From Myxococcota bacterium (GTDB taxonomy: Bacteria > Myxococcota_A > Bradymonadia > UBA7976 > UBA1532), in assembly GCA_036337435.1 (NCBI GenBank), contig JAYZEG010000058.1, positions 247,025 through 311,024 on the forward strand: DNA of 64,000 bases. The letters run 5' to 3'. The position numbers and the translations under genes were made by a program. The notes beneath the pieces are model-generated. The model was not told the DNA's origin. It ran no database searches and saw only the letters and a program-made list of their open reading frames with translations. Shown here piece after piece: positions 46,563 through 63,209 of the stretch (position 1 is the first letter of the stretch; each line of letters starts with the position of its first letter).

Positions 46563-46578
46563 TAGAAAAGGAAATGGT

Positions 46579-47193
46579 TTGGTTAGACCCCGAGAAGGTG
46601 ATAAGCGTCGAAGGATAATTGACGCGGCCGTTCATGTTTTCTCTGAACGTGGTTTTTTCAATTCCCGGGTTAACGATGTGGCGGAAGCTGCTGGGGTAGC
46701 GGGGGGAACCATTTACCTTTATTTCAAAAACAAAGACGATTTGCTGATCAGCGTTTTTGAAGACCGAATGGACACCATTTTGGCGATGTTAAAGTCTGAG
46801 CTTAGGGAAGAGCAGACACCACCCGGGCAATTGAGGCGCTTTATTGAGCTGCACCTCGAATTGGTTCAGCGTGACCAAGCTTTGGCCGATGTATTGGCCG
46901 TGGAGCTCAGACAGTCCGCCAAATTTGTGCGAGAGTATCGGGCGCGGAAATTCTACGAGTATTTAGGCGTGGCCGAAGACATTTTGACAGACGGGATGCG
47001 AGACGGCTCATTTCGAGCGGATATCGACCCTAAATTGTACCGAAGGGCTCTTTTCGGTGCTCTAGATGAACTGACCGTAATGTGGCTCGCATGCGCCCGA
47101 GAGGGACGTGCTGCGCCATGGTCTTTGAATGACGCAGTGAACCAAGTATTTAACCTCTTTGTCTCGGGGCTTGGCCCAGAGGCAGAGCATTAA
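46579..47193 (+). CDS. TetR family regulator (FadR/YsiA-like)
   Basis: HTH: IIDAAVHVFSERGF..VAEAAGVAGGTIYLYFKNKDDLL; ELRQS. Start moved from ATG 46546, which is part of the operator, to TTG 46579 following an AAAGGA RBS. Confidence 0.88.
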   Translation: MVRPREGDKRRRIIDAAVHVFSERGFFNSRVNDVAEAAGVAGGTIYLYFKNKDDLLISVFEDRMDTILAMLKSELREEQTPPGQLRRFIELHLELVQRDQALADVLAVELRQSAKFVREYRARKFYEYLGVAEDILTDGMRDGSFRADIDPKLYRRALFGALDELTVMWLACAREGRAAPWSLNDAVNQVFNLFVSGLGPEAEH

Positions 47194-47209
47194 CCCATAG
47201 GAGCGACCT

Positions 47210-47968
47210 TTGAAAATTCTCGTTACAGCGAAACGGGTTACTGACCCCTACAGCAAGATTACGCTGAAGAAGGATGGCAGTGGACTCGACCTCGACAATG
47301 TTGACTTCAAGATGAACCCCTTTTGTGAAATCGCAATCGAGGAAGCACTTCGAATTGCCGAGGACGCGGATGACCCCGAGATCATTGTCATCGCCATCGG
47401 TGATGATGAAGCGACCAAAGAGGTGCGTACGGGCCTCGCCATGGGAGCCGATCGAGGGATCCTGGTCGAACATGATGAAGACGAACTCGATTCTGACCTT
47501 GTTGCACGAATCTTGGTCAAGATTTGCCAAGATGAAGAACCAGACCTGGTGATCCTTGGAAAGCAGGCGACCGATGGAGACAGTAATCAGGTCGGGCAAT
47601 TGATGGCTGAGTATCTGGGCTGGCCGCAGGCGACATTCGCCTACAAGGTGTCTGTTAATGACGACTACGATGGTGCAGATGTCATGCGAGAAGTTGATGG
47701 CGGTGTCGAAACCGTCCGCCTCAGTTTCCCGGCAGTGATCACCACCGATTTACGTTTGAATGAGCCTCGCTATGCGAGTCTTCCTGGGATTATGAAGGCG
47801 AAGAGAAAGCCACTCGATGTCTTCGACTTAGAGGATTTAGAAATCGACGATGAACTCAAGGTCGAGACGGTTGGATTTGAAATGCCGCCTGAGCGTCAAG
47901 CTGGCATCATCATCGGAGACGTGGATGAGTTGATGGATAAACTCGCAAATGAGGCGAAGGTCATCTGA
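47210..47968 (+). CDS. etfB: Electron transfer flavoprotein beta subunit
   Basis: MNPFCEIAIEEA, LAMGAD, GKQATDGD, REVDGG and NEPRYASLPGIMKAKRK motifs. Confidence 0.96.
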   Translation: MKILVTAKRVTDPYSKITLKKDGSGLDLDNVDFKMNPFCEIAIEEALRIAEDADDPEIIVIAIGDDEATKEVRTGLAMGADRGILVEHDEDELDSDLVARILVKICQDEEPDLVILGKQATDGDSNQVGQLMAEYLGWPQATFAYKVSVNDDYDGADVMREVDGGVETVRLSFPAVITTDLRLNEPRYASLPGIMKAKRKPLDVFDLEDLEIDDELKVETVGFEMPPERQAGIIIGDVDELMDKLANEAKVI

Positions 47969-47988
47969 GGCCTGAAAGGACACAATAT

Positions 47989-48960
47989 ATGAGTAATGTA
48001 ATCGTACTCGCAGAGCATGAATCGGGAGACTTGGTCCGTGGGTCCTTGAATGCCATTCAGGCTGCGAAAGAAATCGTGGCCAAAGTGGGTGGAAGCTTTG
48101 ATGTGGCAGTTGTTGGTTCCGGAATTGGAGCCGTAGCAACCGAACTCGCACAATACGGAGCTGCAACCGTCTATCAGGTTGAATCGAGTGCTCTGGCCAG
48201 TTACACGGCACCTGCCTATGCGCAGGGATTTGAGGTCGCCGTGAAGGCATCGGGTGCAACTTATGTACTTGCTGCTGCAACAGCGAAGGGCAAGGACACA
48301 ACGCCTCGATTGGCGGCTCGATTGGGTGCTGGACAGGCCAGTGATGTCATCGCCATCAATGGTGATGGCAGCCAATTGACGTACACTCGTCCAATGTGGG
48401 CAGGATCCGTATTGGGGCAGGTCAAGGTTAACACAGAGGTCACAGTCCTAACGGTCCGGACGACCGGATTTGACGCCGCTCAAGGTGGACAGGGGCAAAG
48501 TGCTGTTGAGACACTGAGTGCTGATATCGACGTGGCGTCATTACGGATGGAATACGTTGGATTGGATTCTGTTAAGTCTGACCGACCGGCATTGACAGAT
48601 GCAGATGTCGTTGTTGCCGGTGGGCGTGGCCTTAAAGAACCAACGAACTTCAAGCTCCTCGAGACCTTAGCTGATCAACTCGGTGGTGCCCTGGGCGCGA
48701 CGAGAGCGGTCGTTGACGAAGGATGGGTTCCCAACGATTGGCAGGTGGGACAAACTGGTAAAGTGGTTGCGCCTAACCTATATATCGCCGTGGGCATCAG
48801 TGGTGCAATCCAGCATCTATCTGGCATGAAGGGTTCAAAGACGATCGTCGCCATTAATAAGGACCCGGAAGCACCCATTTTCCAGGTCGCGGACTACGGT
48901 ATCGTTGCTGACCTCTTCGACATTGTTCCTGAACTCACCGAAAAGATTGGCAATCGCTAA
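47989..48960 (+). CDS. etfA: Electron transfer flavoprotein alpha subunit
   Basis: [30 protein letters not shown] and [11 protein letters not shown] motifs. Confidence 0.96.
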
Positions 48961-48969
48961 GTTCACTCG

Positions 48970-49000
48970 TCTATCGTCGGTCTATGGGGCCGACGATAGA
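48970..49000 (+). terminator. Stem-loop between etfA and the PqqD gene (terminator or processing/stability hairpin)
   Basis: TCTATCGTCGG (48970-80) and CCGACGATAGA (48990-49000) form a perfect 11-bp stem. No U-tract follows. Confidence 0.5.
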
Positions 49001-49015
49001 TAGGAGCTTTGAATC

Positions 49016-49297
49016 ATGAACTCGACCAAACTGATTACACCTCATCGCCGAGTCGCTGCTCGGATCGTCGATGGCTGCGCGCTCATCCTGGATCCCCGGA
49101 CTGACCAATTGCAGAGGTTGAACGAGGTCGGCTCTTTCATTTGGGCGCGAATCATTGAGCGCAGTCACACCAGTGCATCCATCCGTGACCTTTTGATTGA
49201 TGAGTTTCAAGTTGATGAGGCCACTGCCCAATCTGACCTAAGCGCTTTTCTCGATAAACTCGCCGCACGCGATTTAATCGAGTACGCATCCGATTGA
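49016..49297 (+). CDS. PqqD family RiPP recognition element (stand-alone RRE)
   Basis: 93 aa, RIVDGCALIL..LNEVGSFIW..LIDEFQVD...AQSDLSAFLDKLAARDLI, the classic PqqD pattern. AGGAG RBS. Confidence 0.9.
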   Translation: MNSTKLITPHRRVAARIVDGCALILDPRTDQLQRLNEVGSFIWARIIERSHTSASIRDLLIDEFQVDEATAQSDLSAFLDKLAARDLIEYASD

Positions 49298-49534
49298 TTT
49301 TCCCACCCAGCCGAGTAGAGTGCGCATAGCAGATCCCAATAAGTCGCGTTACATACTCAATTCAGACAACGTCCGTATTGAATAGAAAGCGAGTTGATCG
49401 CGAAAATTATGTGGTCGAGCGAACATTTATAGTGCATGTCTGCATCGCAGATGCGCGCAGCCCGTGACACCATTCCTACTTTTGTGGGAGACTACGTCAG
49501 TAATTTGAAGATTGAGACTTGGAGATTATTTCTC

Positions 49535-52500
49535 ATGTTTGGTTCGTTCTGGAAAAATTGGCTCTCTTACCCATTGTTTGTCATTGGGGCACTTGCTCTT
49601 GGTTGTGATGATTCGTCAGGCCCTAATTTACCACCTCAGCCTGATGCGGGTAACTTAAATCAGGTTGTCATTCTTGCACCGACCAATAACGCTGAGCTGA
49701 CAGCGACCGATGACTTAGATGGGGATGTTACCAACGGTCTTCAATTCAAGGTGTCTCTCGATATCAGTTTGGTTAGCGATGGCACATTACAACTCAACGT
49801 TGGTGATTCAATGCCTCAAGTGGTCGATGTCGAGAGCGGCCCTATCGAACTCGACGCATCAGTTCCCTTCGACCGCAACGGAAGCTACCCAATATCTGCA
49901 GTTTTGACGCCTGCTGAAGGTGATCCCGTCAGTGCTGAAATCCGGGTTCAGGTACGGTCTTTCGCATGTTCTATTACCGTCAATCCTCAGCCGAGCGGTG
50001 TTGGTTGTGATTTAGGTGCCTCCGCCGATGAAGATTCAGTCGCACCTGGTTTCCAGACGACCTTGAGTGCACAAACCAGTTGTCCGGAGGTCGTTTTTAC
50101 GGTCAACAATCTCCCAGCAATTACCGCGCAGACCGTTGATGGTGTTGCAAACCAACAGGTCACGCTGAGAGATGGCGAAAACACCATCACAATCAGTGCA
50201 AACGATGGTCTCGCTGATCCAACCGTTGTTGGCCCCTATCCCCTTTCTGTACGCACAACGGGACCCCAATTCGAATTGAATGACTTCAATGGTGGTCGAG
50301 TGAACACGCGCTTAATTGCCGAAGGAGAACAAGACGGAGGTTTAATTTATTGGGCCATTCAAGGTCGGGCAAACGGTGTCGAGCCTGGCGCGAGGGTCCA
50401 ACTCAGTTTCGAGCCTGCTTTGGACAACGCACCCGCTGATGCACGGGTCGATGAAAACGGACAATTTAGATTCGAAGTCGCGGTTGCCAGGGGGGCGTTC
50501 TACTCTGGAGACCTCACGCTGTCGGCGACTGACATTTGCGGCGAAGCAGGTGAGTCCGATGCCTATACAATCCGCCTCGATGCAGTCGTTCCGACCGCAC
50601 AAATCATTGAACCAAGTGACGGTTCTTTACTGGTTTTCAGCCTCGATTTGGAACCAACGCGAGCCGGTGCTCAAATCCCGGTCTCCATCGACTTGATCGA
50701 CCCGCGCCCCAGCGATGTCGACTACCCCATTTCAATCGAATGTGCCGCAGTCAGTGGAAGCCCAGTATTTGTCGACAGGGCTCGGGGGCCCGGCGACGCC
50801 ATTAATCGGTCAGATCTCCTAGATGATGATCCGACCAACGATGCGGTCATTGTGACCTTTCAACAATCAGAGCAAGGTGAATTCATTTGTCGTACGGTTA
50901 TCGGCGGCACGAGTAATCCATCGACGGCTCGCGAAGTTGTATGGAGGGCATTCTTCGACCGGCCGAGCTTCAGCCTCTTTACACCGGCTCGGGCACCATC
51001 TTGCGTACGGTCCGATGAGGTGGACTTTGCTGGAACCGGAATGGATCTAGATGGAAATCAGCCAGCGCTGAGCGCGACCATTACATCGCCGCAATTAGAC
51101 GATGACCTCGTGGTTGGTTTCGAACCGCGCGGCGGCGAGAGGTATGGTTTTGCACTCGATGCTCTTGAGCTTCCAGATGGGGAGTATGCGGTGTCCTTGT
51201 CTGGCCAGGTACTCGGTCAGGTTGATGTTGACATCGAACCACAAGAATTCTCGGTCATCGTCGATAGGCAAGGGCCGACTGTCAGCATTCTAAGTCCCGA
51301 CGCATCAGCGACGTTTGTTGATGAAGATCCAGCAACAGCTGGGACACAGAGTGGCTTGCGGTTCGAGGTTTGTGGCGCAGGCGGCCAAGAGCTCAATATA
51401 ACAACACTGCCAGCACTCGCGGGCAGCCCCTACATTGTCAATATTCCTGCAGACGCTGAATGTTCCACCGTGTCTTTGCCGCCGACGACTGTGCCTTTGG
51501 GCGACGTCCTGATTACGGCTGGCGTAACGGACCGATGTAATGTCCAGGCCAGTGCATCCATGACAGCGTCTATTTCTCCGTCGGCACGAGAGTCGCGCAT
51601 CTTGACTCCAACTCCGGGATTTGTAAACGCCAATTCTGATACAGATAACAATCGTGCAGGTTGTCAATTTGAATTGACCGCCGTTGGTCAAGGAATGGCT
51701 GAGGGTGCAGAGTTCTTTGTGTGTACGAATGTTCAACAAACGGCACCGATAGGCCAATGCAATGGCGCATCATCAGCACTGGCTGGAGCGTGTCGTATTA
51801 CGGGCTCGACGGAAAATGGGGCTCAGGTTGCATGTCCATTGACGCTCGTCGATGGTCAGCATGACATTACATTCGTAGGGATTTTCGGCGATCGCGTGGA
51901 ATCTGCTCCAGTTGCTCTGAACATCGACTGTCAAGCACCCAGTGTGACTCAGCTCACGCTGGTTGATGATGCCGACAACGATGGCTGTATTAACCAGATG
52001 GAAAGGCGTAATCAGGGGGCACCGGGCACGGCAGCTCAATTCCAAGTTCGTGTTCAAACCGAGGGTTTTGAAGATGGGCAAGTCATCCGTTTGTTGACGG
52101 AGGATGGTGTATCCCAAGGCTCAGTCGCCCTCGTCAATAACCAGGGTAACATTACGGTGCAACTCGCTGAAGGAACCAGGACGCTCAATGTTACAGGCTC
52201 CGACCTTGCTGGCAATTCAGTTGCTACAGAAGGCGTGGATGTTGTCACCTTGCCATTGCAAGTGGACACAACAGCACCTACGCCTAGCTTGACCAACATC
52301 GTCCAAGCGGCTTGTTTGAATGCCACTGCTGATGAAGACGAGAACACCGCCGGCCTCCAGTACTCAGTTCAAATTAATACAGGACGTGAGCAGAACGATA
52401 CGGTGACAGCGCGCATGGTCTTGGATGGGATCGAAATCGCAACGCAGCAGGCACAAACAGATACGGTCGACTTTGCTGCGCAGACCTTTGCTGAGGGCGC

Positions 52501-55255
52501 ACATAATCTTGCTGTGACCGTGACTGACGGCTGTTCGAACGTCGGCAGCGTCAGCGGCTTTGCTCAGGTCAATGGCGTTGACGATTGGACCCAGCCGATA
52601 GCGGTCCCCGTTTTGGTCGACACCATCGCGCCCAATTTGAGCATAGACGGTTTGCTTGATGGGGCGATATTAACCGCTATTGACGATGCGGATGCCAACT
52701 CTGCTAACGGTTTTCAGGTCGACTTAGTCGCGCAATTGGATGCCGCTGCTCCAATCGAAGAAGGTGAACAGATTGATCTCACCATCAACGGTGCGCCAGC
52801 CGAAACATCGCCAAGTCCACTGCTTGCCCCAGCGGCAGGCCAAATTGTCGCTCCTGTTCGTGTGACATTATCGCCGGGCGTGCAAACGATGCAGCTTTCC
52901 GCGGCTGACGTTTGCGGTAATGCAGGTACATCGGCGACTGTATCCGTCGAGTTGCAGATTCCTGGTTGCACCAGCAACATTGGCGGCTTTGATACAAATC
53001 CAGCCATCCTTGGTGCTGCAGATGGTATCAGGAGTGGCAATGAGTTGACTTTGGATATCAACGGTCGAGTTGATCTACTGGATCAGGCCTGTGTAGGCGC
53101 ACAAATTCTACTCTTAGTTGACGGCGAGCAGGTCGCCGACTCGGTGGTGCCAGACGGTGGCGTGATTTCATTTCCTGCAGTCACTTTTATCGAAGGGCAA
53201 CGAAACGTAAGGTTTCGGGTTCGAGCAGCTGATGACAGCACCCTAGATTCTCCGAATCAGGCTCTTTCAGTCGACCTCTCAAGCCCGACGTTGTCTGTCG
53301 TGCAGCCTCTCGATGGTGCCTCGTTGCTGACCGATTCCGACGCTGCGACAGCGGGACAGCAGGCTCTCATTCAAGTCAACGTTACGGAGAATTCTGTTGT
53401 CACAGCGAGGACTGCTCTGCTCCGAGTTGATGGTGCCGCAATCGGCGAGCCAATCGCCATTAATTCGGATAGCCCGACATTGGTTAACTTCGCGGGTGTG
53501 ACCCTGAATGCGGGTAACCGTTCGTTGCAGCTCTGTGTCACAGATGAAGCGGGGAATGCTGGCTGTGCAAATTGGTCGGTTAACGCAGATCCCGCTGCGC
53601 CATCGGCCGTGAGTGACCTCCTTGGACAAATTAATGACAGACGGTCGACGGATGTGAGCTTGACGTTTACGGCTCCCGGCGATGATGGTGATGCCGGCGG
53701 ACAGGTTCTACAGTATGCAGTACGACGCGCTGACGCGGCTATTGGTGACGAGAACGCATGGCAGAATGCCGCCTCATCAGAGCTCGTGGTTCCGGCTACT
53801 CTCGCCCCGGGCGGCCAAGAGCTAATTTCTTTGACGGGTGTCGGACCAGGACCGGCCATTCAAGATGGGCTTCAGCAAAATAAAATTCATCATCTTGCTG
53901 TGAGAGCGATGGATGATGCTGGACGGATGAGCGAAATCAGCCAAGTCGTTGTCGATCTGACCATGAATCAGAGAACCGCCAACGTTGAACCGATTTTGGG
54001 ACAGTTGGATGACAGCGACTTTTTCAATCAAGGATCTCAGATTATCGGGGCTGGAGATTTAGATGGGGATGGTCTCAATGACACTTTGGTGGTCGGCTCT
54101 CAAGCGGCTGCATCTGTTGCATCATTGATCTTCGGTGCATTAGATCAGGATGCTCTAACGGTGCTTCCCCTCGAGATTCCCGATTCAATTCTTCAAGGTT
54201 TCTTCGGGCTCGGCGCAGCGAATATTGGTGACGTCAATGGTGATGGTGCAGCTGACTTTGCTGTCATTGGCGTGCAAAATGGGTTTGCTGGGTCCGCCAT
54301 TGTCATTTATTTTGGTTGTGATGGTGCTTGTGATCGCTCGACCCTCGCTACACCCGATGCGTTGATCACGGCAAACAACGGCCGATTGATTAGCGTTGTT
54401 GCCGCAGCCGGCAATTTTAATCAGCGTGCTGGAGATGGTGCGAGCTTGGGCGATATTTTTCTCGGTGGGAGTATCTCAGCTCAGCAAAACCCAACGACGG
54501 CCTTTGTGGTGTCCGGCCGGGCCGATTGGCCGGTGCTACCAGACTCGATTGTTCTCGATGATGATCCTGCAAATAGCAGCGATGGTGTCATCGTCTTGAC
54601 TGTTCCAGATGGCAAGGCCGGTTATGCTGGCGCGAGTGCCGGGAATATCAGTGGTGATGCACGCGATGACCTGGTTTTTAGTGCCGGTAATCCCAGTGTC
54701 ATCTACCGATTCAATGGGGGCGTAGATTTGCCCGACTCAATTACCTATGTCCCTAATAATCCGGACACCGCTGTGGTCCCTCATGTGTGTTCTGCAGACC
54801 CCGATGGATACGGTGAGCACATCATTGGTGGGAAAGACCTGGATGGAGATCCAGGGGGAATCGCTAACTTTGCGGTTGCCGACGGCATCAACCGCCGGGT
54901 GGTGGTTTTTGATGAAAATGACCAACCTATCGATTGCTTTGGCCGCAGTCGGGCTCTATTTGGAAATGTTTTCGACTTTGCTGGTGATTTAGACGGTGAT
55001 GGTTTTGAGGATCTGATCGTCACACATGCTGATACCGATGCAGATGCGTTTGTTTTCTATAACGATGGTCTGGGCCAATTCGGGGACGGAGCAGCCGAAG
55101 CCCCCCGTGGGGCGCACATTATCTTCGATGAACCGGATCTACCAAAAATCGGTGTCGCAGGACTTGGAGATACAAACAATGACGGCCGGGATGATGTCGG
55201 AGCCGTTGTTAAACAACCTGGAGATGTCGATCTCCAGCTGATTATTTATCAGTAG
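49535..55255 (+). CDS. Large secreted lipoprotein: tandem Ig-like domains, Fn3-like domain and FG-GAP repeat propeller
   Basis: Start placed at ATG 49535 (GGAG RBS), giving a signal peptide with lipobox ALG-C. Repeated D..AP and DxAGN Ig motifs, SLTFTAPGDDG (Fn3), and several GDLDGDG..D FG-GAP repeats. Confidence 0.82.
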   Translation: MFGSFWKNWLSYPLFVIGALALGCDDSSGPNLPPQPDAGNLNQVVILAPTNNAELTATDDLDGDVTNGLQFKVSLDISLVSDGTLQLNVGDSMPQVVDVESGPIELDASVPFDRNGSYPISAVLTPAEGDPVSAEIRVQVRSFACSITVNPQPSGVGCDLGASADEDSVAPGFQTTLSAQTSCPEVVFTVNNLPAITAQTVDGVANQQVTLRDGENTITISANDGLADPTVVGPYPLSVRTTGPQFELNDFNGGRVNTRLIAEGEQDGGLIYWAIQGRANGVEPGARVQLSFEPALDNAPADARVDENGQFRFEVAVARGAFYSGDLTLSATDICGEAGESDAYTIRLDAVVPTAQIIEPSDGSLLVFSLDLEPTRAGAQIPVSIDLIDPRPSDVDYPISIECAAVSGSPVFVDRARGPGDAINRSDLLDDDPTNDAVIVTFQQSEQGEFICRTVIGGTSNPSTAREVVWRAFFDRPSFSLFTPARAPSCVRSDEVDFAGTGMDLDGNQPALSATITSPQLDDDLVVGFEPRGGERYGFALDALELPDGEYAVSLSGQVLGQVDVDIEPQEFSVIVDRQGPTVSILSPDASATFVDEDPATAGTQSGLRFEVCGAGGQELNITTLPALAGSPYIVNIPADAECSTVSLPPTTVPLGDVLITAGVTDRCNVQASASMTASISPSARESRILTPTPGFVNANSDTDNNRAGCQFELTAVGQGMAEGAEFFVCTNVQQTAPIGQCNGASSALAGACRITGSTENGAQVACPLTLVDGQHDITFVGIFGDRVESAPVALNIDCQAPSVTQLTLVDDADNDGCINQMERRNQGAPGTAAQFQVRVQTEGFEDGQVIRLLTEDGVSQGSVALVNNQGNITVQLAEGTRTLNVTGSDLAGNSVATEGVDVVTLPLQVDTTAPTPSLTNIVQAACLNATADEDENTAGLQYSVQINTGREQNDTVTARMVLDGIEIATQQAQTDTVDFAAQTFAEGAHNLAVTVTDGCSNVGSVSGFAQVNGVDDWTQPIAVPVLVDTIAPNLSIDGLLDGAILTAIDDADANSANGFQVDLVAQLDAAAPIEEGEQIDLTINGAPAETSPSPLLAPAAGQIVAPVRVTLSPGVQTMQLSAADVCGNAGTSATVSVELQIPGCTSNIGGFDTNPAILGAADGIRSGNELTLDINGRVDLLDQACVGAQILLLVDGEQVADSVVPDGGVISFPAVTFIEGQRNVRFRVRAADDSTLDSPNQALSVDLSSPTLSVVQPLDGASLLTDSDAATAGQQALIQVNVTENSVVTARTALLRVDGAAIGEPIAINSDSPTLVNFAGVTLNAGNRSLQLCVTDEAGNAGCANWSVNADPAAPSAVSDLLGQINDRRSTDVSLTFTAPGDDGDAGGQVLQYAVRRADAAIGDENAWQNAASSELVVPATLAPGGQELISLTGVGPGPAIQDGLQQNKIHHLAVRAMDDAGRMSEISQVVVDLTMNQRTANVEPILGQLDDSDFFNQGSQIIGAGDLDGDGLNDTLVVGSQAAASVASLIFGALDQDALTVLPLEIPDSILQGFFGLGAANIGDVNGDGAADFAVIGVQNGFAGSAIVIYFGCDGACDRSTLATPDALITANNGRLISVVAAAGNFNQRAGDGASLGDIFLGGSISAQQNPTTAFVVSGRADWPVLPDSIVLDDDPANSSDGVIVLTVPDGKAGYAGASAGNISGDARDDLVFSAGNPSVIYRFNGGVDLPDSITYVPNNPDTAVVPHVCSADPDGYGEHIIGGKDLDGDPGGIANFAVADGINRRVVVFDENDQPIDCFGRSRALFGNVFDFAGDLDGDGFEDLIVTHADTDADAFVFYNDGLGQFGDGAAEAPRGAHIIFDEPDLPKIGVAGLGDTNNDGRDDVGAVVKQPGDVDLQLIIYQ

Positions 55256-55272
55256 CCGTTAGGAGTGACCAA

Positions 55273-55449
55273 ATGTCTAAGAAAAAGGCTGAAATAAACC
55301 AAGAGGTCAAAGCGCAGGATCACCGTCGCCCGTACAAGGCACCCGACTTTATGTCATCCCTCGCATTTGAAAGAAAATCCCTCGCATGTAATCCAGCGAC
55401 GCGGAACGCCAGCCCGGCTTTTCCTGCACTCTGTTCCATGCAGTCCTAA
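55273..55449 (+). CDS. Putative RiPP precursor peptide (58 aa, not in ORF track)
   Basis: AGGAG RBS at 55261. Translation: MSKKKAEINQEVKAQDHRRPYKAPDFMSSLAFERKSLACNPATRNASPAFPALCSMQS*. It has a YxxP motif and exactly fills the gap between the flanking genes. Confidence 0.8.
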   Translation: MSKKKAEINQEVKAQDHRRPYKAPDFMSSLAFERKSLACNPATRNASPAFPALCSMQS

Positions 55450-55464
55450 CCAAAAGTCAAACCG

Positions 55465-56229
55465 ATGAGTCGTCTTTACATTGGGCCAATCGAGATCCGT
55501 TTGAACGGAACTGGATATAGCCACTTTTTGACTCAATATGATTTTGGACCATTTGCGCGTAAGCGACCTGTCGAGAGAACCATAGAGCTGACTTTTGGTG
55601 AGAAACATGATGTCCGGCTTGACGTAGCCTCTTTCATCTATCGCCGACATGACCTGAGTTTTATTGCCCACGAGCGGCGATGCTTAGCTTGGGTTTCCGG
55701 CGATATATCGGGTTTTCTTGCATGCTTAGAATTGGCCTTGTTTATTGGAGTAAGCCAGCTCGGTGGCGTCTTAATGCACGCATCAGTGGGTGTTCTTGAC
55801 GACGAAGCCTGGCTCATGCCGGGTCCATCAGGCACAGGGAAATCAACAGCGATAAACGGTGGATTTGACCGAATCCTAAGCGATGAACGTGTGATTCTGG
55901 TCAAAGAACACCGCGGCTATCGTGTTTGGGGTACACCATTTTGGAGCGACGGCCGTTGCTGGCCGTTGGATGTGTCCAGTGGCGTATTAGCGGGAATCAT
56001 CAAGTTGGTTCAATCTCCGACGCTGGCCCGCTGTGAGTTAGACAGGATAGAGATGATCGAGTGGGTCATGCGCTCTGTCATCATGTATGGTGAATCTGCA
56101 GTCAACGCGGATGACTTAATGACATTTGTTGTTCACATGGTGGACTCAACAGAACGAATCCAAGTTTCGTTTCCAAAGGAGGGGTTATGGGCAACTTCGA
56201 TGCTCAGTCAGATTGGTCTGGCTTCGTAA
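55465..56229 (+). CDS. HPr kinase-like P-loop protein (ScmC-like, RiPP-associated kinase)
   Basis: MHAS...GPSGTGKST...LSDERV...WGTPFW, matching the HPrK His, P-loop and acidic motifs. Confidence 0.75.
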   Translation: MSRLYIGPIEIRLNGTGYSHFLTQYDFGPFARKRPVERTIELTFGEKHDVRLDVASFIYRRHDLSFIAHERRCLAWVSGDISGFLACLELALFIGVSQLGGVLMHASVGVLDDEAWLMPGPSGTGKSTAINGGFDRILSDERVILVKEHRGYRVWGTPFWSDGRCWPLDVSSGVLAGIIKLVQSPTLARCELDRIEMIEWVMRSVIMYGESAVNADDLMTFVVHMVDSTERIQVSFPKEGLWATSMLSQIGLAS

Positions 56230-57413
56230 AGTCGGCAATCGAGAATACCATTCCCTTTACTGTTCATTGGGATTTAACCTGGCGCTGTGACCACAAATGC
56301 GTCCATTGCTATCTGACAGATCGGCGCAAGCCGGAACTCGATGTAGACGAAAGTATCGCCGTACTGGACCAGCTTGTTGACGCGGGCACCTTGTCGATTC
56401 TTTTCAGCGGCGGTGATCCGTTTCTGCGGCCTGATGGAATTGATATTATGCGGGCGGCTCGTCAACGAGACTTCGATGTCCGGATCAACACTCATGGGAA
56501 TTTTATCGACGATGCCATGGCCGACGAACTCGCCCGAATCGGTGTTGCAAGGGTCAGCTTGTCTGTCTACTCAGCAAATGCCAGCGAACACGACGCGGTT
56601 ACGCTCATCCCGGGCAGTCATCAGAAAACATTGGATGCGGCTAGGCGGCTGGTTGCTCGCGATGTCGCAGTCAACTTCAAGACACCGGTCATGGTTCAAA
56701 ACCGAGACTCTTATCAGACCGTTGGGCCGATAGCGGAAGACATTGGTGCATCTTGGGAATTGGATGCTCACATCGTCCCCGATGACCAAAGTGACTTTGG
56801 TCTCTGCTCAATCGGTGTTCATGATGGCGAACGCGTGCTCGCGATGATGCATCAAGTCGCCGAACGAAGGAACATGGTTACTCATTGGGCGAACATGCCC
56901 GATGCGTCGTCGACGGCACGCACCTGTGGTGCTGGCACAGCGATGGCCTATATTTCCCCCGATGGAATTCTCTATCCCTGTCTTAACTGGCGGGATCCAA
57001 TCGGCGACCTTCGGGAGAACTCCTTTAAATCTCTATGGCGGGACAGTGCCGCGATTAAACGGCAAAGAGAAGTGACTCGTGCCAGTTATGAGAGCGACTG
57101 CGGAGGCTGTAGTTTTCAGGGAAAGTGTCATTACTGCCCAGGAATATCCCATGCTGAGCATGGTTCAGCTGGTCGCCGAAGTGCGTATGTCTGTGAACGA
57201 ACACACCTCACGATGACGGCTTTCGAACACTTAGAATACTTAAATCAGGTGGGTCAGCCAATTCCGAAACCAGGTTCGCCAGAAGCCGTTGATATTTTGA
57301 GTCGAACAACTTTTGCCAAGCGTCAATGGTCTGCTCGAAAGGCCGGTGTTGCTCGGCCCTCAGACCAAGTGCGCCCCAATCTCTTTCAAATTCTTGAGCC
57401 AGGTCAACGTTGA
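56187..57413 (+). CDS. Radical SAM/SPASM peptide maturase
   Basis: CDHKCVHC, FSGGDPF, and SPASM cysteines CGAG..ISPDG..YPC...CGGC..KCHYCPG...C. AAGGAGG RBS. Confidence 0.92.
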   Translation: MGNFDAQSDWSGFVKSAIENTIPFTVHWDLTWRCDHKCVHCYLTDRRKPELDVDESIAVLDQLVDAGTLSILFSGGDPFLRPDGIDIMRAARQRDFDVRINTHGNFIDDAMADELARIGVARVSLSVYSANASEHDAVTLIPGSHQKTLDAARRLVARDVAVNFKTPVMVQNRDSYQTVGPIAEDIGASWELDAHIVPDDQSDFGLCSIGVHDGERVLAMMHQVAERRNMVTHWANMPDASSTARTCGAGTAMAYISPDGILYPCLNWRDPIGDLRENSFKSLWRDSAAIKRQREVTRASYESDCGGCSFQGKCHYCPGISHAEHGSAGRRSAYVCERTHLTMTAFEHLEYLNQVGQPIPKPGSPEAVDILSRTTFAKRQWSARKAGVARPSDQVRPNLFQILEPGQR

Positions 57414-57850
57414 TGTTGCCGCTCGATGCCGCAATAACGGCTTCTTTATCCAACGAGCTTCTCGCGAAGGGTGAGTCGATTCAGTTTGTGGCGAGGGGAC
57501 AATCTATGTGGCCGTTCATTATCGATGGCGACACCGTTCTCTTGGAACCTCTCGTTCATCAACCGTGCGTTGGTGACGTTGTCTTACTCAAGAAAACGGA
57601 AACTGGTCCCTTACATCGTGTGGTTGCAGGGCCTCACCAGGGTCGTTTTCGAGTTTGGGGGGACGCGCTGCCGCGTCCGGATGCATGGGTACGAGCGGAT
57701 GAAATGCTGGGTCGATTGGTTCGGAGACAACGTGATGGAGTTGATAAAACCGTCTATGGTGGGTTCCAGGCCGTTCTCATGGCCAGAGTGCTCGGTACGT
57801 CTCGCCGGTTTATTTCAAAAATTAAACGCGGGTTTCTTGGAAGCCGATAA
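57413..57850 (+). CDS. S24/S26 family (signal peptidase-like) peptidase, no TM anchor
   Basis: GQSMWPFI.DGD (catalytic Ser), GDVV, LHRVV (His base) and WGDALPRPD. TGATG overlap with the rSAM gene. Confidence 0.8.
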   Translation: MLPLDAAITASLSNELLAKGESIQFVARGQSMWPFIIDGDTVLLEPLVHQPCVGDVVLLKKTETGPLHRVVAGPHQGRFRVWGDALPRPDAWVRADEMLGRLVRRQRDGVDKTVYGGFQAVLMARVLGTSRRFISKIKRGFLGSR

Positions 57851-57871
57851 GACTTCGGTCAACATAGGCAT

Positions 57872-59410
57872 ATGGCAAATTCACTCGTAATCAATTGTAG
57901 TCCACACGAAACTCGCATTGGGGTCATCGAAAACAACAAAGTTGTGGAATTGATGATCGAACGAAGAAAAACCACGGGCTTGTTGGGCAATATTTATAAG
58001 GGTCGAGTCACACGAGTCCTACCCGGTATGCAGGCAGCTTTTGTCGACATTGGGCTTGAGCGCGCAGCGTTTTTATATGTCGCCGACGTAACGGACGCGA
58101 GACGCAGTCGCAGTTCATCAAACTCAGTGTCCGATACAAGGGCTGAAAGTTATCATCCGCCCATTCAAAATTTGTTGCACGAAGGGCAGGAGATTATGGT
58201 CCAAGTCTCCAAGGAACCTTTAGGGACGAAGGGGGCCCGTGTCACGAGTAATGTCAGTATTGCCGGTCGACATCTGGTTTATATGCCGACAGTTGAGCAT
58301 GTCGGGATCAGCCGGCGCATTTCCGATGAGGAGGAGCGTAGACGTCTAAGAGAAGCCCTTGAGACATTGGTTCCTCAAGGTGGCGGGTTTGTCGCTCGGA
58401 CGGCAGCGGAAGGTCGGAGTCTCGAAGAGTTGGGCGCGGACGTGGAATTCTTAAGCCAGGTCTGGAACGACATCGTTAATCGAATGGAGAATAGTGCAGC
58501 TCCGGTCACGCTTTATGACGACCTAGATTTGCTCTTAAGGTCGGCGAGAGACCTGGTTATGCCCGACCTAGAAGAGATCGTTATCGATGATGAGGTCGAA
58601 TTTTCTAGGCTTTTAGATTTCATGCGTCGCTTTATGCCGCGCTACGCCGAGCGGGTCGTTCGATTCGATGGTGACGGACCAATTTTTGATCACTATGGTG
58701 TCGAGATTGAACTCAACCGGGCTTTATCCAGAAAGGTTTGGCTTCCCAGCGGGGGGTACTTGATTATCGATCAGACTGAAGCTTTGACGGCCATTGACGT
58801 CAATACGGGGCGGTTTGTTGGTAAGAGAAATTTGTCAGAAACCATTTTAAAGACCAATGTCGAGGCCGTGACAGAGGTCGTTCGGCAACTTCGCCTTCGC
58901 AATATTGGGGGTATCATTGTCATCGACTTCATCGATATGGAGTCGCCCAATAATCGACACCGTGTTTATGCAGACCTCGAGTTGGCCTTAGAGAGTGATC
59001 GCGCCCGAACCAATATTCTCAAAATCAGTGAGCTAGGCCTTGTAGAAATGACTCGTAAACGGGTTCGAGAGTCGCTTGTGAGGTCGGTTTCTGAGTCGTG
59101 CTTTTACTGCGACGGCACAGGTCTTTTAAAGAGCCGGACAACCATTGCACATGAAGTCTACCGCACGCTGCTCAGAGAAGGCCCGTCCATGCGCACGAAG
59201 ACCATACGGGTTTCCGTACATCCGCGTGTTTCTACGAGTTTTCACGCCGATGAGCGTGTGTTGATAGACGAACTTGAATCGAGACTCGAGAGGACCATTC
59301 GATTAGAAAGTCGATCAGATTTTCACATCGAACACTTCGAGATCTCGGCTATCGACCAATCTGAAATGGTCGTTGGTCGAAAAATCACAGGCTCCGCCGG
59401 CGACCGCTGA
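57872..59410 (+). CDS. rng: Ribonuclease G (Rne/Rng family)
   Basis: GNIYKGRVTRVLPGMQAAFVDIG, KEPLGTKGAR, TEALTAIDVNTG, RLRNIGGIIVIDFIDM and the CxxC Zn-link. No RNase E scaffold region. Confidence 0.92.
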   Translation: MANSLVINCSPHETRIGVIENNKVVELMIERRKTTGLLGNIYKGRVTRVLPGMQAAFVDIGLERAAFLYVADVTDARRSRSSSNSVSDTRAESYHPPIQNLLHEGQEIMVQVSKEPLGTKGARVTSNVSIAGRHLVYMPTVEHVGISRRISDEEERRRLREALETLVPQGGGFVARTAAEGRSLEELGADVEFLSQVWNDIVNRMENSAAPVTLYDDLDLLLRSARDLVMPDLEEIVIDDEVEFSRLLDFMRRFMPRYAERVVRFDGDGPIFDHYGVEIELNRALSRKVWLPSGGYLIIDQTEALTAIDVNTGRFVGKRNLSETILKTNVEAVTEVVRQLRLRNIGGIIVIDFIDMESPNNRHRVYADLELALESDRARTNILKISELGLVEMTRKRVRESLVRSVSESCFYCDGTGLLKSRTTIAHEVYRTLLREGPSMRTKTIRVSVHPRVSTSFHADERVLIDELESRLERTIRLESRSDFHIEHFEISAIDQSEMVVGRKITGSAGDR

Positions 59411-59828
59411 GAAGAGCACACAATTCTGTATAGGCTGTGTTTAATTCTTGGCTGCGGGTGTGTGCAGCGCGTTCCGCCGCCGGATCATGAGCAAACAGGT
59501 CCGGGTGATTTTTTCGCATGGCTTTGCGCCAGGCTTGTTTCACTTCATCCAGAGACGCTCCAGGTTCTAGACCCAGGGTATGGTAGTACGAATTCGCGTT
59601 TCTAGCCCGATCGACATGGGTGTGTGCGCGCTGAGCCTCATCCTGCATTCGTCGGACCCAAACCCACAGCTCTTCTTCTAAATTGATGAGCCAAGATTCA
59701 ACATTTTCCCGCGATTCCTTAATTCGGTCGGTCACCTTGTCAACCTGACGTTGAACTCTGGGTTGTGACAGTATGAACTGTCCTGCGGATCGCCCTAATT
59801 TGGCGACGATGTCCTTAAATTTACTCAC
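59385..59828 (-). CDS. Protein with C-terminal DnaJ domain
   Basis: YYHTLGL..ASLDEVKQAWRK..NHPD...LNTAY. Confidence 0.85.
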   Translation of the reverse strand: MSKFKDIVAKLGRSAGQFILSQPRVQRQVDKVTDRIKESRENVESWLINLEEELWVWVRRMQDEAQRAHTHVDRARNANSYYHTLGLEPGASLDEVKQAWRKAMRKNHPDLFAHDPAAERAAHTRSQELNTAYTELCALLSGRRRSL

Positions 59829-59857
59829 GTCTGCGTTCCAAATTCGACATCATTTGC

Positions 59858-60541
59858 CTAGGAGATCCGCTCGGTCACGGTGAGTCCATGCCGATCATAG
59901 GTTCGGCCGCACTCCTCGCAAGTACAAGATTCTTTACCATCGTGCACGCCAAAGGCGAGCCGCTCCCCACAAAAGCAGGCCCAGCCCTGCAAACGTGCAG
60001 GGTTTCCGTAGACCAAGCCGTAGTCTGGTACATCTTTTGTTACGACAGCCCCCGCTCCGACCAGAGAATATTGCCCGAGTGTATTTCCACAAACCACCGT
60101 TGCGTTCGCACCAATGGATGCGCCGCGACGAACGCGCGTCTCGAGATATTGTCCACGTCGGGGATATGCACTTCGCGGTGTTCCAACATTTGTAAACACC
60201 ATCGATGGTCCACAAAAGACATCGTCTTCGAGAATTACACCCGAGTAGACCGAGACATTGTTTTGGATTTTGACGTTATTTCCGATTAAAACATCGCGCT
60301 CGATGACGACGTTTTGACCAAAGCTACAGTTTTGTCCGATAGTCAGCGGACCCAGCAACTTACTGAAGTGCCAAATCTTAGTTCCATGGCCAATGGTCAC
60401 ATCACCATCTATAACAACTGATTCGTGTACAAAGGCTTTTTCCTCACCGTTCAGATTCTCGGTCACAGGGGGTCTCCGCATTCGGTTTAGTATTTCGTTC
60501 AGGCGTTGTTTGAACGCTGATATCTTGAAGGAACTGGACAA
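59858..60541 (-). CDS. Hexapeptide N-acetyltransferase (WbpD-like, sugar-nucleotide acetyltransferase)
   Basis: GTKIWHFS, VKIQNNVSVY, VFCGPSMVFTNV..PRS, GASIGANAT, GNPAR and a C-terminal CxC..CxxC. The true start may be downstream of 60541. Confidence 0.88.
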   Translation of the reverse strand: MSSSFKISAFKQRLNEILNRMRRPPVTENLNGEEKAFVHESVVIDGDVTIGHGTKIWHFSKLLGPLTIGQNCSFGQNVVIERDVLIGNNVKIQNNVSVYSGVILEDDVFCGPSMVFTNVGTPRSAYPRRGQYLETRVRRGASIGANATVVCGNTLGQYSLVGAGAVVTKDVPDYGLVYGNPARLQGWACFCGERLAFGVHDGKESCTCEECGRTYDRHGLTVTERIS

Positions 60542-60602
60542 CCCTGTCCATGATCATCGCCCAGAGTAGGTGCTTTGTCGCGTCCCAACAACCCAGGCCG
60601 AT

Positions 60603-63209
60603 CTACTGGGGCCGATCTTCATCCTCATCTTCGTCAGAGGGCAGCTCGGTCTCATCGGGTGCTGTTGCATCGTCTTTTGTGGCCGGCACTTTGTCGCTTG
60701 CCGGGCCTGCTGGCGAGAGGTCAAAAGCCGGTGCAGTCGGCGTTTTGCCCTGGCGCGCTGAGATCGGCGTCAAGTCTAAGTCCGCCGGACTATCAGGGCG
60801 AGCTGAGCTGGGGTCCAGTTCACCATCTAACGGCTTAATCTCGTCAGATGAATCGGAATTCATAAGAAAGGCATTTTCGTCGATCTCACCCTCGAGGGGT
60901 GCGACTTCCGTTGGTTCTGTCCCATTGAGAAAGAACTCTACACGAGTGTTGGTTGCTTCTGCTTGAGCTAGGCGACCATCCGCCACGATCGTGAGTTCCG
61001 TCACGCCCTTCACCGTGGCTTGCCAAGCGGGTCCATCTTTCTCTGCTTTTTTTAAATACTGTCTGATAATCGGCACGGCGGTACGGCCGCCCGATTCTTT
61101 ACGCCCGAGTGACCGGCCATTATCGAACCCAACCCATGTTGCGAAGGATACGTCCGGTAATGACCCGACGAACCAGGCATCCCTCGCCCGATTGGTGGTG
61201 CCGGTTTTTCCAATAACCTGCCTTTTTATCCCCTTCAGACCGCGTCCACTTCCATCGGTAACGACTGATCTCAAGAGTGAGCGAACGATATATGCAACAT
61301 CTGGACGGATAGACTCGCGAAGTTGTTCTTGACTCGGTGTTTGAGTTTGACCGTTTGAAACCTTAATTTTCCGAATGAGTCGTGGTTCTTTTAAATGGCC
61401 GGATGATGCAACTGTTGCGTACCCATTGACCAGTTCTACCATTCTTACTTCGCTTGACCCCAATGCGGCCGATAGCCCACGGCCCATCTTTGATTTGAGG
61501 CCTGAATTTCTCGCGAACTGATGAACAGCGTCAATTCCTACAGCTTCCGTGAGATGAACGGCAATTGAATTGACCGAATTGGCCAATGCATCTCGCAGGC
61601 TGATCGCTCCCTTAAATTTTCGAGTGTAGTTTCTGGGTTGCCAAAATTTACCTTGATACACTCTTAGAGTCTCTGGAGCATCGAGTAAGTGTGATGCAGC
61701 GGTAAACTTCTTGGACGCGATAGCAGCCCCCCACACAAATGGTTTAAATGCACTGCCTGGCTGTCTTTTTGACCGGGTCGAGCGATTAAATTTAGAAACC
61801 GCATAACTCCAGCCGCCGACCATCGCTAACACATCCCTCGATTGATTATCGACGACCATAAGAGCTGCCTGTGGGAGTTCGGGCAGCGTGACCTTAACTG
61901 TGTCATCGGTGCTAGATTTAGGCCGAGCTGTGACTTTGACCCTAAGGATATCGCCAGGCTTGATGGGGCTTTCCTTCAAGAGTTGATGGCGCCGCGTCAA
62001 GATGCGTCTCTTGAGCTCGGCTTTGCCCACCGATAGATCTAACTTGATCACGTCTTTTTTGATGGCTAAAACACGTCCTTCGAGAGTTTGGCCCTTGGTT
62101 AAGGCTTTGCCCTTGAGTTTTTTTCTCTGGCGTTTCTGCCAACGTTTTGCTGCTTTTCCGGTTGCACGAGCGATGGGACGTCCATAGTTGTGCCGTTTAT
62201 CCAGAGAATCGAGTCCCATTTGAACGGCCTCGATAGCCGCTCTTTGGCGGCTTGGATCCACGGTTGTATGGATTTGAAGACCGGCGGTTTTTATTTCTTT
62301 CGGTGTATATGATTTGAGCAAACGTTTGTAGACCTCATCGACAAACCAACCAAAGGCATCGCGGTTGTTCTTCGATCGTATTCGTAATCCAAAATTTTTG
62401 GAGTCAATCTGGTTCGCATCCCCTTTTTTGATATAGCCGTTTCGCACCATTTGATTCAGAACGTAGTGTCGGCGCTGCCGAGCGCGCTCCGGGTGTTTAA
62501 AGGGGGAGATCCGCTCAGGAGATTGGATGAGGCCGGCCAGTGTGGCCGACTCGTTTAGGTCAAGGCGGCTGGCATCTTTACCGAAATAATACCGGGCCGC
62601 TTCTTGGACGCCGTACCGCCCGTGGCCTAGATATATGGCATTCAAATATATGCCTAGAATGTCATCCTTTGTTAGATGTTGTTCTAATCGGCGAGCCAAG
62701 ATCAGTTCACGAACCTTTCGTCGTACACTTTTCGTGGGTGTAAGGAGGAGGTTCTTCACCGTTTGTTGGGTAATGGTACTGCCACTGCCCGTCACCCGTC
62801 CTGCGCGCACACTGTTGTAAACAGCCCGTGCCATGCCCATGTAGTCGAGCCCTTTATGGGAATAGAAATCAGCGTCCTCGGCCGATAGAATTGCGTGAAT
62901 TAAGACATCGGGAATTTCGTTTCGCCCAATCAGTGTTCGACGCTCTTCATAGAACTCGCCGATAATGGATCCATCCTGGGCGTAAACGCGGGAAATTTGT
63001 GGTGGTTGATAATCGGCTAAATCGCGATAATCGGGGAGTCCATGCGCGTAGTAGAGATAGACACCCACAACAGCAGTGCAGCTGAGTGCCACCACCGCAA
63101 AGGTCACCATCAAGAGTCGCTTGATGCGCGAACCCCATGTCTTTTTTTTGAGCGACTTGTTTGGTTTTTTACCCCTTTTTTGAGGAGGTCGAACCTTCTT
63201 TTTTGACAA
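60603..63209 (-). CDS. Class A penicillin-binding protein (PBP1A family)
   Basis: Transglycosylase motifs ED..F..H.G, GSTITQQ, RK.RE and YLN. Transpeptidase motifs GSAFK, SVN and KTGT. Confidence 0.94.
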   Translation of the reverse strand: MSKKKVRPPQKRGKKPNKSLKKKTWGSRIKRLLMVTFAVVALSCTAVVGVYLYYAHGLPDYRDLADYQPPQISRVYAQDGSIIGEFYEERRTLIGRNEIPDVLIHAILSAEDADFYSHKGLDYMGMARAVYNSVRAGRVTGSGSTITQQTVKNLLLTPTKSVRRKVRELILARRLEQHLTKDDILGIYLNAIYLGHGRYGVQEAARYYFGKDASRLDLNESATLAGLIQSPERISPFKHPERARQRRHYVLNQMVRNGYIKKGDANQIDSKNFGLRIRSKNNRDAFGWFVDEVYKRLLKSYTPKEIKTAGLQIHTTVDPSRQRAAIEAVQMGLDSLDKRHNYGRPIARATGKAAKRWQKRQRKKLKGKALTKGQTLEGRVLAIKKDVIKLDLSVGKAELKRRILTRRHQLLKESPIKPGDILRVKVTARPKSSTDDTVKVTLPELPQAALMVVDNQSRDVLAMVGGWSYAVSKFNRSTRSKRQPGSAFKPFVWGAAIASKKFTAASHLLDAPETLRVYQGKFWQPRNYTRKFKGAISLRDALANSVNSIAVHLTEAVGIDAVHQFARNSGLKSKMGRGLSAALGSSEVRMVELVNGYATVASSGHLKEPRLIRKIKVSNGQTQTPSQEQLRESIRPDVAYIVRSLLRSVVTDGSGRGLKGIKRQVIGKTGTTNRARDAWFVGSLPDVSFATWVGFDNGRSLGRKESGGRTAVPIIRQYLKKAEKDGPAWQATVKGVTELTIVADGRLAQAEATNTRVEFFLNGTEPTEVAPLEGEIDENAFLMNSDSSDEIKPLDGELDPSSARPDSPADLDLTPISARQGKTPTAPAFDLSPAGPASDKVPATKDDATAPDETELPSDEDEDEDRPQ

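Follow-up and report, generated by a model that had tools for sequence, protein, structure and literature searches.

A conserved precursor gene in a kinase and radical SAM cassette

We analysed a window of 64,000 nucleotides (nt), the whole stretch of DNA taken from a contig of a Myxococcota bacterium (JAYZEG010000058.1, positions 247,025 to 311,024; assembly GCA_036337435.1), which contains a 58-codon open reading frame (ORF) that an earlier note, made from the letters alone, had proposed as a hidden peptide precursor. The ORF lies in a cassette that encodes, in this order, a discrete PqqD-family RRE (RiPP recognition element; RiPPs are peptides made by the ribosome and modified after translation), a large surface-protein-like product, the 58-residue peptide, a kinase-like protein of the HprK fold, a radical S-adenosylmethionine (rSAM) enzyme with a SPASM domain and a signal-peptidase-like protease (Table 1). 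Coordinates, translation and the strong AGGAG ribosome-binding site (RBS) of the ORF are exactly as the earlier note had given them, and the RRE, kinase and rSAM enzyme that it had invoked are indeed encoded in the same cassette. The ORF very probably encodes the precursor of a RiPP pathway that comprises the RRE, the kinase, the rSAM enzyme and the peptidase, in a cassette belonging to an uncultured marine order of Myxococcota.

Table 1. Genes and sequence features of the cassette and its surroundings (positions in the window)
Feature	Position	Strand	Basis or remark
TetR (YsiA-like)	46546-47193
Electron transfer flavoprotein (ETF) beta	47210-47968
ETF-alpha	47989-48960
PqqD-family RRE, discrete, 93 aa	49016-49297	+	Pfam PqqD 59.4 bits (cut-off 23.4)
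Surface-protein-like gene, 1939 aa, between RRE and precursor, accessory	49436-55255	+	Pfam Big_13, FG-GAP_3/FG-GAP
RBS AGGAG	55261-55265	+	letters read; 7 nt 5' of ATG
Precursor peptide gene	55273-55449	+	58 codons, ATG start, stop included; translation MSKKKAEINQEVKAQDHRRPYKAPDFMSSLAFERKSLACNPATRNASPAFPALCSMQS
Leader recognition motif R18-R-P-Y21-K-A-P24-D-F26	55324-55350	+	Y21, P24, F26 in 133/133
F32-E33-R34, candidate cleavage site after R34	55366-55374	+	invariant 133/133
Cys39 codon, preceded by (S/A)-L-(A/S); alternative candidate cleavage site before Cys39	55387-55389	+	invariant
Cys54 codon	55432-55434	+	invariant 133/133
Ser58 codon, C-terminal residue	55444-55446	+	invariant 133/133
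HprK/PEPCK-fold P-loop kinase-like protein, 254 aa	55465-56229	+	fold and motif
Radical SAM/SPASM enzyme, 408 aa	56187-57413	+	Pfam Radical_SAM 73.6 bits, SPASM 33.6 bits
Signal-peptidase-I-like (S24/S26 clan) serine peptidase, 146 aa, candidate leader peptidase	57410-57850	+	fold and triad
RNase G	57872-59410

The precursor gene is tightly packed between its neighbours and present as a single copy in its own genome. The RBS begins 5 nt past the stop codon (55253-55255) of the preceding 1939-codon gene, which ends 17 nt 5' of the peptide ATG, and 15 nt separate the peptide stop from the kinase start. In a six-frame tblastn search of 61 related genomes, the peptide was matched in 26 of the 27 other genomes of the same family (E-value ≤ 0.0075) and in all three genomes from a second family of the same order. 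The sole exception within the family is an 82% complete genome (G021; best E-value 1.41). Five further families of the class, represented by 30 genomes, yielded no convincing peptide match; the best hit (E-value 0.036) contained an internal stop. Within one order, the system is near-universal and syntenic.

Eleven positions are invariant among 24 aligned orthologues (M1, Y21, P24, F26, F32, E33, R34, L37, C39, C54 and S58), and the ten of them other than the initiator Met are likewise invariant across 133 non-redundant sequences, in which N45 and S29 are each retained in 124. This conservation covers the residues singled out by the earlier note, namely Y21 and P24 of the proposed leader motif and a core with two Cys (C39, C54) ending in Ser (S58), all of which are unchanged in the 133 homologues. 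The core region otherwise differs between genera. Twelve sequence pairs were compared at the codon level, four of them with saturated synonymous sites and eight usable. The ratio of non-synonymous to synonymous substitution rates (dN/dS) for residues 19-58 in the eight unsaturated pairs was 0, 0.016, 0.017, 0.028, 0.055, 0.117, 0.141 and 0.378, and that of the N-terminal 18 residues ranged, where computable, from 0.22 to 1.08. Between the window and one relative (L016), residues 19-58 differ by 13 synonymous and one non-synonymous substitution. Residues 19-58 are under strong purifying selection and the N-terminus drifts. A profile search of 5.8 billion proteins returned 232 clusters for the Myxococcota branch at an E-value ≤ 0.001, whose named members are all called "hypothetical protein" and none of which carries a Pfam domain. 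The ORF itself matches no Pfam or NCBIfam family, and we found no model in either collection for the kinase-linked peptide family. The 58-codon ORF is a real, strongly conserved gene and encodes a precursor-type peptide.

Metatranscriptome contigs from three studies (X15, X18 and X19) cover the full ORF at an identity of at least 99%, one of which (X19) runs from the end of the large gene through the peptide gene into the beginning of the kinase gene. The sole difference inside the ORF among these contigs is a synonymous G-to-A change at position 55332. Because this evidence consists of contigs only, it documents presence in RNA libraries and does not prove transcription. One X15 contig (record 1) starts at position 55269, right after sequencing-adapter letters, 4 nt 5' of the ATG and 3' of the RBS, which is probably a fragment end. 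An Rfam search of positions 46000-60000 detected no RNA family, and a promoter and terminator scan did not rise above shuffled sequences (5 promoter-like hits versus 11.3 expected, 17 terminator-like hits versus 13.2). At 55218-55237, within the last codons of the large gene and 36 nt 5' of the peptide ATG, two 8-bp arms pair perfectly around a 4-nt loop (CTGGAGAT GTCG ATCTCCAG), and a T-rich stretch comes next; judged by its letters, this inverted repeat may serve in RNA processing or attenuation.

Proteins encoded with the precursor and their distribution

The composition of the cassette is conserved. tblastn comparison of the loci of 20 relatives revealed a constant gene order, with the kinase gene found in 20, the rSAM gene in 18, the peptidase gene and, 5' of the peptide, the PqqD gene in 16 each, and the large gene, at the same place as in the window, in 14. 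In three loci (L020, L021 and L023) the PqqD gene lies directly 5' of the peptide, which argues for a core of RRE, peptide, kinase, rSAM enzyme and peptidase with the large protein as an accessory insert. The rSAM start overlaps the kinase gene by 43 nt and is preceded by a conserved AAGGAGG; a near-identical (A/G)GGAGGG RBS precedes the rSAM gene in almost all of 18 relatives (the corresponding region of the window is 56170-56229). The conservation of this RBS inside the kinase 3' end suggests translational coupling of the two genes. The peptidase gene in turn shares 4 nt with the end of the rSAM gene.

The RRE exceeds the Pfam cut-off for PqqD and has sub-cutoff matches in NCBIfam (ScmD, 32.3 against a cut-off of 100; lasso PqqD; GeoRSP PqqD). 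The kinase has no Pfam match, and its best NCBIfam scores are below cut-off as well (ScmC, TIGR04249, 29.1 against 125; HprK_rel_A, TIGR04352, 20.1 against 200). Its AlphaFold model (predicted local distance difference test, pLDDT, 91.8) was matched by Foldseek to ATP-PEPCK (E-values from 5e-6) and to HPr kinase/phosphatase (1ko7, 2e-4; 1kkl, 3e-4; 1knx within 2-3e-4), and a profile search against PDB sequences pointed, weakly, in the same direction. The fold, the P-loop (GxSGxGK(S/T)T, invariant) and the His/Lys/acidic pair are all present, and invariant residues in an alignment of 20 sequences include H105, G120, S122, G123, G125, K126, T128, D140 and E141. The catalytic-type motif reads H-K-D-E, its second acidic residue being Glu. 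In one relative (L022 of genome G023, positions 8413-8763) the kinase gene is matched only as two short, overlapping pieces in different frames (ORF of 117 aa), for which a frameshift, decay to a pseudogene or faulty assembly could be responsible; the peptide and the rSAM gene are intact in this genome.

Both Pfam matches of the rSAM enzyme are above cut-off, and it contains the CX3CX2C motif (C34-x3-C38-x2-C41) as well as the seven Cys of a SPASM motif (247, 265, 305, 308, 314, 317 and 336), all of them invariant. Its closest solved relatives are SkfB (1e-9) and PqqE (4e-9), and MftC is among its best relatives (8.6e-28, sub-cutoff). None of the curated NCBIfam cut-offs was reached (ScmE, 69.7 against 400; GeoRSP rSAM, 97.9 against 400; StsB, 81.8 against 625; AlbA, 50 against 850). 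Matches to PADLOC pVip (49 bits) were confined to the N-terminal core, and we discounted them as a likeness common to rSAM proteins in general.

The peptidase likewise scores below cut-off in sequence models (sigpep_I_arch, 30.2 against 51.85; Pfam Peptidase_S24, 17.2 against 23.3). Its predicted structure (pLDDT 85.9) consists of an N-terminal helix (residues 3-19) and a beta-barrel core, resembles SpsB (7e-4), SipA, human SEC11 and LexA C-domains, and includes no predicted membrane anchor. The S26/S24 fold comes with a Ser-His-Asp triad (S32, H69, D85) that is invariant in 18 sequences.

The 1939-residue product of the large gene starts with a hydrophobic signal ending in ALALG-C, which from its letters looks lipoprotein-like, and continues with Ig-like Big_13 domains, followed at the C-terminus by FG-GAP repeats. 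In five genomes that lack the large gene at the locus (it is absent from two genera), no orthologue of it was found elsewhere, the only matches covering about 100 of 540 residues. Upstream of the RRE gene, the genes for TetR, ETF-beta and ETF-alpha are found in the same position in many genera of the family, an adjacency that probably reflects nothing more than synteny with an operon for fatty-acid oxidation; should the product of the cassette be a cofactor, this trio would be its sole redox-related neighbour. PBP1 is also among the housekeeping neighbours. In some relatives, a 2-kb gap between the peptidase gene and RNase G was considered as the place of an exporter and rejected, as the gap is occupied by an amino-acid dehydrogenase together with a methyltransferase-like ORF.

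The second family of the order has a different arrangement (L024, positions 6911-10127, and L027; L119-L121). Its peptide ends in SNQSG, and peptide and kinase genes adjoin an O-methyltransferase gene and a convergent gene for a 2595-aa PPC-domain protein. An rSAM orthologue (56-57% identity) is encoded on a separate contig, where neither a PqqD nor a peptidase gene lies within 1.5 kb.

To trace the family further, one genome per species was scanned with the kinase alignment, which yielded 111 relatives, of which 80 loci were kept. The closest 19 are Myxococcota metagenome-assembled genomes (MAGs) labelled Myxococcales, Bradymonadia or Nannocystaceae, and a hidden Markov model (HMM) search recovered the peptide in all 19. 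The other 61 loci come from Nitrospirota/Thermodesulfovibrionales, Elusimicrobia, Acidobacteriota, Planctomycetota, Actinomycetes, Verrucomicrobiota, an Iainarchaeum archaeon and others; tblastn detected rSAM/SPASM enzymes in at least 49 of them, PqqD in at least 17 and the peptidase in at least 16, counts that are lower bounds because the small proteins are divergent and some contigs are cut. An ORF with a [YW]xxPx[LVIFAM] motif, two or more Cys and a terminal Ser is present in 62 of the 80 loci, and in 44 of the 61 such an ORF lies on the kinase strand. Across all 80 loci, the terminal residue is Ser in 67 of 120 motif-bearing candidates, compared with 11.2% of all ORF tails near the kinase. 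One more distant Myxococcota cassette (L060) encodes PqqD, a Big_13/fn3/FG-GAP protein, a peptide-like ORF, the kinase and the rSAM enzyme in the same order as the window. Among the proteins of three distant cassettes, a curated NCBIfam cut-off was reached only by the peptidase of L075 (sigpep_I_arch, 54.1, cut-off 51.85). In an archaeal MAG (Iainarchaeum; L078, positions 6545-8995), kinase, PqqD and rSAM genes accompany a 50-aa peptide of the form KYEKPAI...FER...C...C...C...S, whose FER is the same motif as in the Myxococcota peptides.

Leader handling and likeness to known RiPP systems

The closest characterised systems are the linear polyphosphorylated peptides (LPP) of the Bacillota and the paeninodin-type phosphorylated lasso peptides, neither of which has an rSAM enzyme. 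LPP is made by lppAKBSDN clusters (Popov et al., Nat Commun 2026; PMC13381572). According to the accessible part of that report, their core genes encode a kinase, an RRE, an SpI-like peptidase, an NTP-transferase and an exporter resembling MsbA, and their precursors carry the motif YxxPxVLxHQxIxFETxxS. The present cassette shares with LPP the discrete RRE, a YxxPx(hydrophobic) leader followed by F-E-(T/R), and the lack of a lasso cyclase. In contrast to LPP, it includes an rSAM/SPASM enzyme, a class (radical SAM, rSAM or SPASM) mentioned nowhere in the accessible text of PMC13381572, and neither an NTP-transferase nor an MsbA-like or other ATP-binding cassette (ABC) exporter was found among the ORFs at 44345-63209. 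Moreover, the spacing from Tyr to FE is two residues shorter here, the residue preceding the candidate cut is Arg instead of Thr, the third residue past FER is the invariant Leu37, so that there is no Ser at core position +3, and the core combines two invariant Cys with an invariant terminal Ser. The two systems also differ in distribution: the cassette is near-universal in an order of Myxococcota, whereas LPP clusters of Bacillota are, like paeninodin clusters, described as extremely patchy (PMC13381572, accessible part).

Paeninodin-type systems (PadeA/PadeK, ThcoK, SyanK and PsmK; PMC9266682, accessible part) resemble the cassette in their HprK-related kinase, PqqD-like B1 RRE, Y/WxxP leader and conserved C-terminal Ser. 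They differ from it in that a Pfam scan of the 13 ORFs at 44345-63209 detected neither a lasso cyclase (Asn-synthetase-like) nor a B2 cysteine protease, the places of which are taken here by the rSAM/SPASM enzyme and the serine peptidase. Their kinases are described as sharing a His-Lys-Asp-Asp motif (PMC9266682), which differs, as described, from the H-K-D-E found here. A third likeness is to SynChlorMet (SCM) and GeoRSP (TIGR04248-04251, TIGR04302-04303), which combine a PqqD homologue, the HprK-like ScmC and PqqE-like rSAM/SPASM enzymes and whose models are the best or near-best NCBIfam matches for the RRE and kinase. All these scores are, however, far below cut-off, and the cassette encodes one rSAM enzyme instead of two. 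We know of no precursor for SCM. Finally, SkfB, AlbA, StsB, PapB and PqqE/MftC share the rSAM core and seven-Cys SPASM, a Cys-containing peptide and PqqD-type presentation; unlike in sactipeptide and ranthipeptide maturases, the RRE is a separate protein here, and no curated cut-off was reached.

A literature search revealed no description of a cassette with an rSAM enzyme, an HprK-type kinase and a signal peptidase, or of this peptide family, in the main texts covered; the main texts of an rSAM compendium (PMC10288494) and an RRE paper (PMC12710340) do not contain "kinase", "HPr" or "signal peptidase". A text search on SynChlorMet, ScmC and HprK-related kinase turned up nothing but papers on an unrelated "SCMC". 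A bioRxiv preprint (10.1101/467670) was rejected as a precedent since it concerns unrelated Rgg-linked clusters.

Discrete RREs of lasso and LPP systems bind a leader motif [Y/W]xxPx[L/V/I/F/A] (PMC13381572, accessible part), which the YxxP(xF) of the precursor fits. Basic residues precede the motif almost without exception (R or K at position 18 in 133 of 133 sequences and at position 19 in 132). The earlier note's assignment of YxxP as the RRE-bound motif agrees with this pattern. Co-folding of RRE and peptide added weak support for the binding itself: the score was 0.39, against 0.10 for the best control, with a partner pLDDT of about 49, and runs shared at least 90% of contacts. The approach was calibrated on 157 solved complexes, of which 116 passed the mark, and on 215 mismatched pairs, of which 2 did; only 18 of the solved complexes, and both passing mismatches, had scores of 0.60 or less.

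Two sites compete for leader cleavage. In LPP, the protease LppS cuts directly after the Thr of the leader FET, F-3, E-2 and T-1 mutants are cleaved poorly, and cleavage requires the RRE (PMC13381572, accessible part). By analogy, F32-E33-R34 may correspond to the F-E-T at the end of the LPP leader; FER is present in all of the best 120 of the 232 database homologues, and together with the LppS cut its invariance argues for FER|KSLAC and a core of 24 residues. The classical -3/-1 rule of signal peptidases would instead favour a cut four residues later, as the small residues of (S/A)-L-(A/S) agree with SLA|C, the site that the earlier note had marked. Among the same 120 homologues, the residue at -1 to Cys39 is A or S in 119 and that at -3 is A or S in 120. 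The sequence x-A-L-A-C after FET also occurs in Elusimicrobia relatives. A reading of C39-N-P-A-T-R as a sulfatase-type CxPxR motif was rejected, since its residues are wrongly spaced and conservation of the stretch is lacking.

In lasso precursors, the conserved Ser at the C-terminus is phosphorylated by PadeK and ThcoK (PMC9266682, accessible part), and by analogy to these paeninodin-type systems the invariant Ser58 is the most likely kinase target, as the earlier note had also proposed; for the two Cys it had suggested rSAM thioethers or a disulfide. Its equivalent is the final residue in 108 of the best 120 database homologues and is followed by a single Gly in the other 12. From these comparisons we infer the chemical steps, their order and their sites as follows. 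The discrete PqqD-type RRE would bind the leader through (R/K)(R/K)-P-Y-x-x-P-x-F and present the peptide to the enzymes. The HprK-fold kinase would phosphorylate a serine, most likely Ser58, and the rSAM/SPASM enzyme would modify the C-terminal part, most likely by a cross-link, for example a thioether, at Cys39 and/or Cys54. The cytoplasmic Ser-His-Asp protease would then remove the leader, either after F32-E33-R34, as expected from LppS homology, or after A38, as expected from the -3/-1 rule, to give a mature modified peptide of 20-24 residues.

Alternative readings and biological meaning

Several observations weigh against such a RiPP pathway or against parts of it. The kinase, peptidase and rSAM enzyme are below every curated NCBIfam cut-off, so that only fold and motif back the functions assigned to them. 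The Pfam scan of the 13 ORFs at 44345-63209 showed no exporter gene in the cassette. In the second family, peptide and kinase genes lie apart from the rSAM gene, and physical linkage to the rSAM gene is therefore not universal. DNA carry-over may account for the metatranscriptome contigs. Arg at -1 in FER would be unlike the Thr at -1 of LPP. LppK, the sole kinase studied together with a signal-peptidase-like protease, targets a Ser near the cleavage site and not a terminal one, a precedent that would speak against Ser58, and since a Ser occurs within four residues past FER in 115 of the best 120 database homologues, Ser58 is not the sole candidate for phosphorylation.

A rival reading is a wiring as in LPP, which we regard as possible but on balance doubtful. 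The peptidase would cut after FER34 to release a 24-residue core (KSLAC...SMQS), and the kinase would (poly)phosphorylate S36 (core position +2; +2 or +4 in relatives), leaving the terminal Ser to serve elsewhere, for example in rSAM recognition or later tailoring. The cut of LppS after FET, the polyphosphorylation of core Ser3 by LppK (PMC13381572, accessible part), the invariance of FER and the frequent Ser close behind it all fit this scheme, and the N-terminal helix of the peptidase (residues 3-19) resembles the alpha-1 helix of LppS that, in the same report, touches the RRE-leader sheet. However, Leu37, which is invariant, occupies the place of LPP S3, the Ser close by moves among +1, +2, +4 and +6, 5 of the 120 homologues have none in the first four core positions, and Arg is unusual as a -1 residue, whereas the terminal Ser is invariant and recurs across phyla alongside the kinase.

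Alternatively, the cassette could make a peptide-derived housekeeping factor, that is, a cofactor or an intracellular or envelope peptide comparable to pyrroloquinoline quinone (PQQ) or mycofactocin, instead of a secreted natural product, which we consider unlikely. A PqqD-type chaperone and an rSAM/SPASM enzyme likewise serve the PQQ and mycofactocin pathways, and MftC and PqqE are among the best relatives of the rSAM enzyme here. The near-universal, syntenic presence in a whole order contrasts with the patchy LPP and paeninodin clusters, and the lack of an exporter gene, a peptidase model without predicted membrane anchor and the neighbouring ETF, RNase G and PBP1 genes point the same way. 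Yet no partner enzyme using such a factor was identified, the ETF adjacency may be plain synteny, and the kinase and peptidase indicate a logic of the LPP/lasso type. In addition, the core varies between genera; to our knowledge, PqqA and MftA cores do not vary in this manner.

Still less do we favour the idea that the product is a vertically inherited housekeeping modified peptide of this marine Myxococcota order whose function is tied to the giant Ig-like/FG-GAP surface protein, for which a phosphorylated, cross-linked peptide could be, for example, a ligand, an anchor or a maturation factor. It is highly improbable that the product of the ORF is a small protein left unmodified, or that the stretch is conserved in a non-coding or regulatory role, and that its place among these genes is a coincidence: the ORF has no Pfam or NCBIfam family and is known here from genes alone, but its purifying selection is frame-specific at the codon level, its invariant residues fit the RRE-binding motif, its place beside the kinase gene is fixed in 20 of 20 loci, and Rfam finds no RNA family.

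A RiPP precursor processed by the RRE, kinase, rSAM enzyme and peptidase is thus the reading we prefer. What is new in this cassette is the combination of leader handling of the lasso/LPP type and a serine kinase with a radical SAM enzyme, by which it unites two RiPP toolkits so far described apart, namely lasso/LPP leader handling with Ser phosphorylation and radical SAM/SPASM chemistry. Specific to the Myxococcota branch are FER with two invariant Cys, the near-universal syntenic presence in the order and the insertion of a giant surface-protein gene. The precursor family is large, with its 232 clusters in the Myxococcota branch and look-alikes in many phyla, and with the precursor identified the chemistry can be put to a direct test by co-expression and mass spectrometry. 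The near-universal, syntenic occurrence beside a giant surface protein hints at a physiological instead of an antibiotic role, which, if true, would be unusual for RiPPs.

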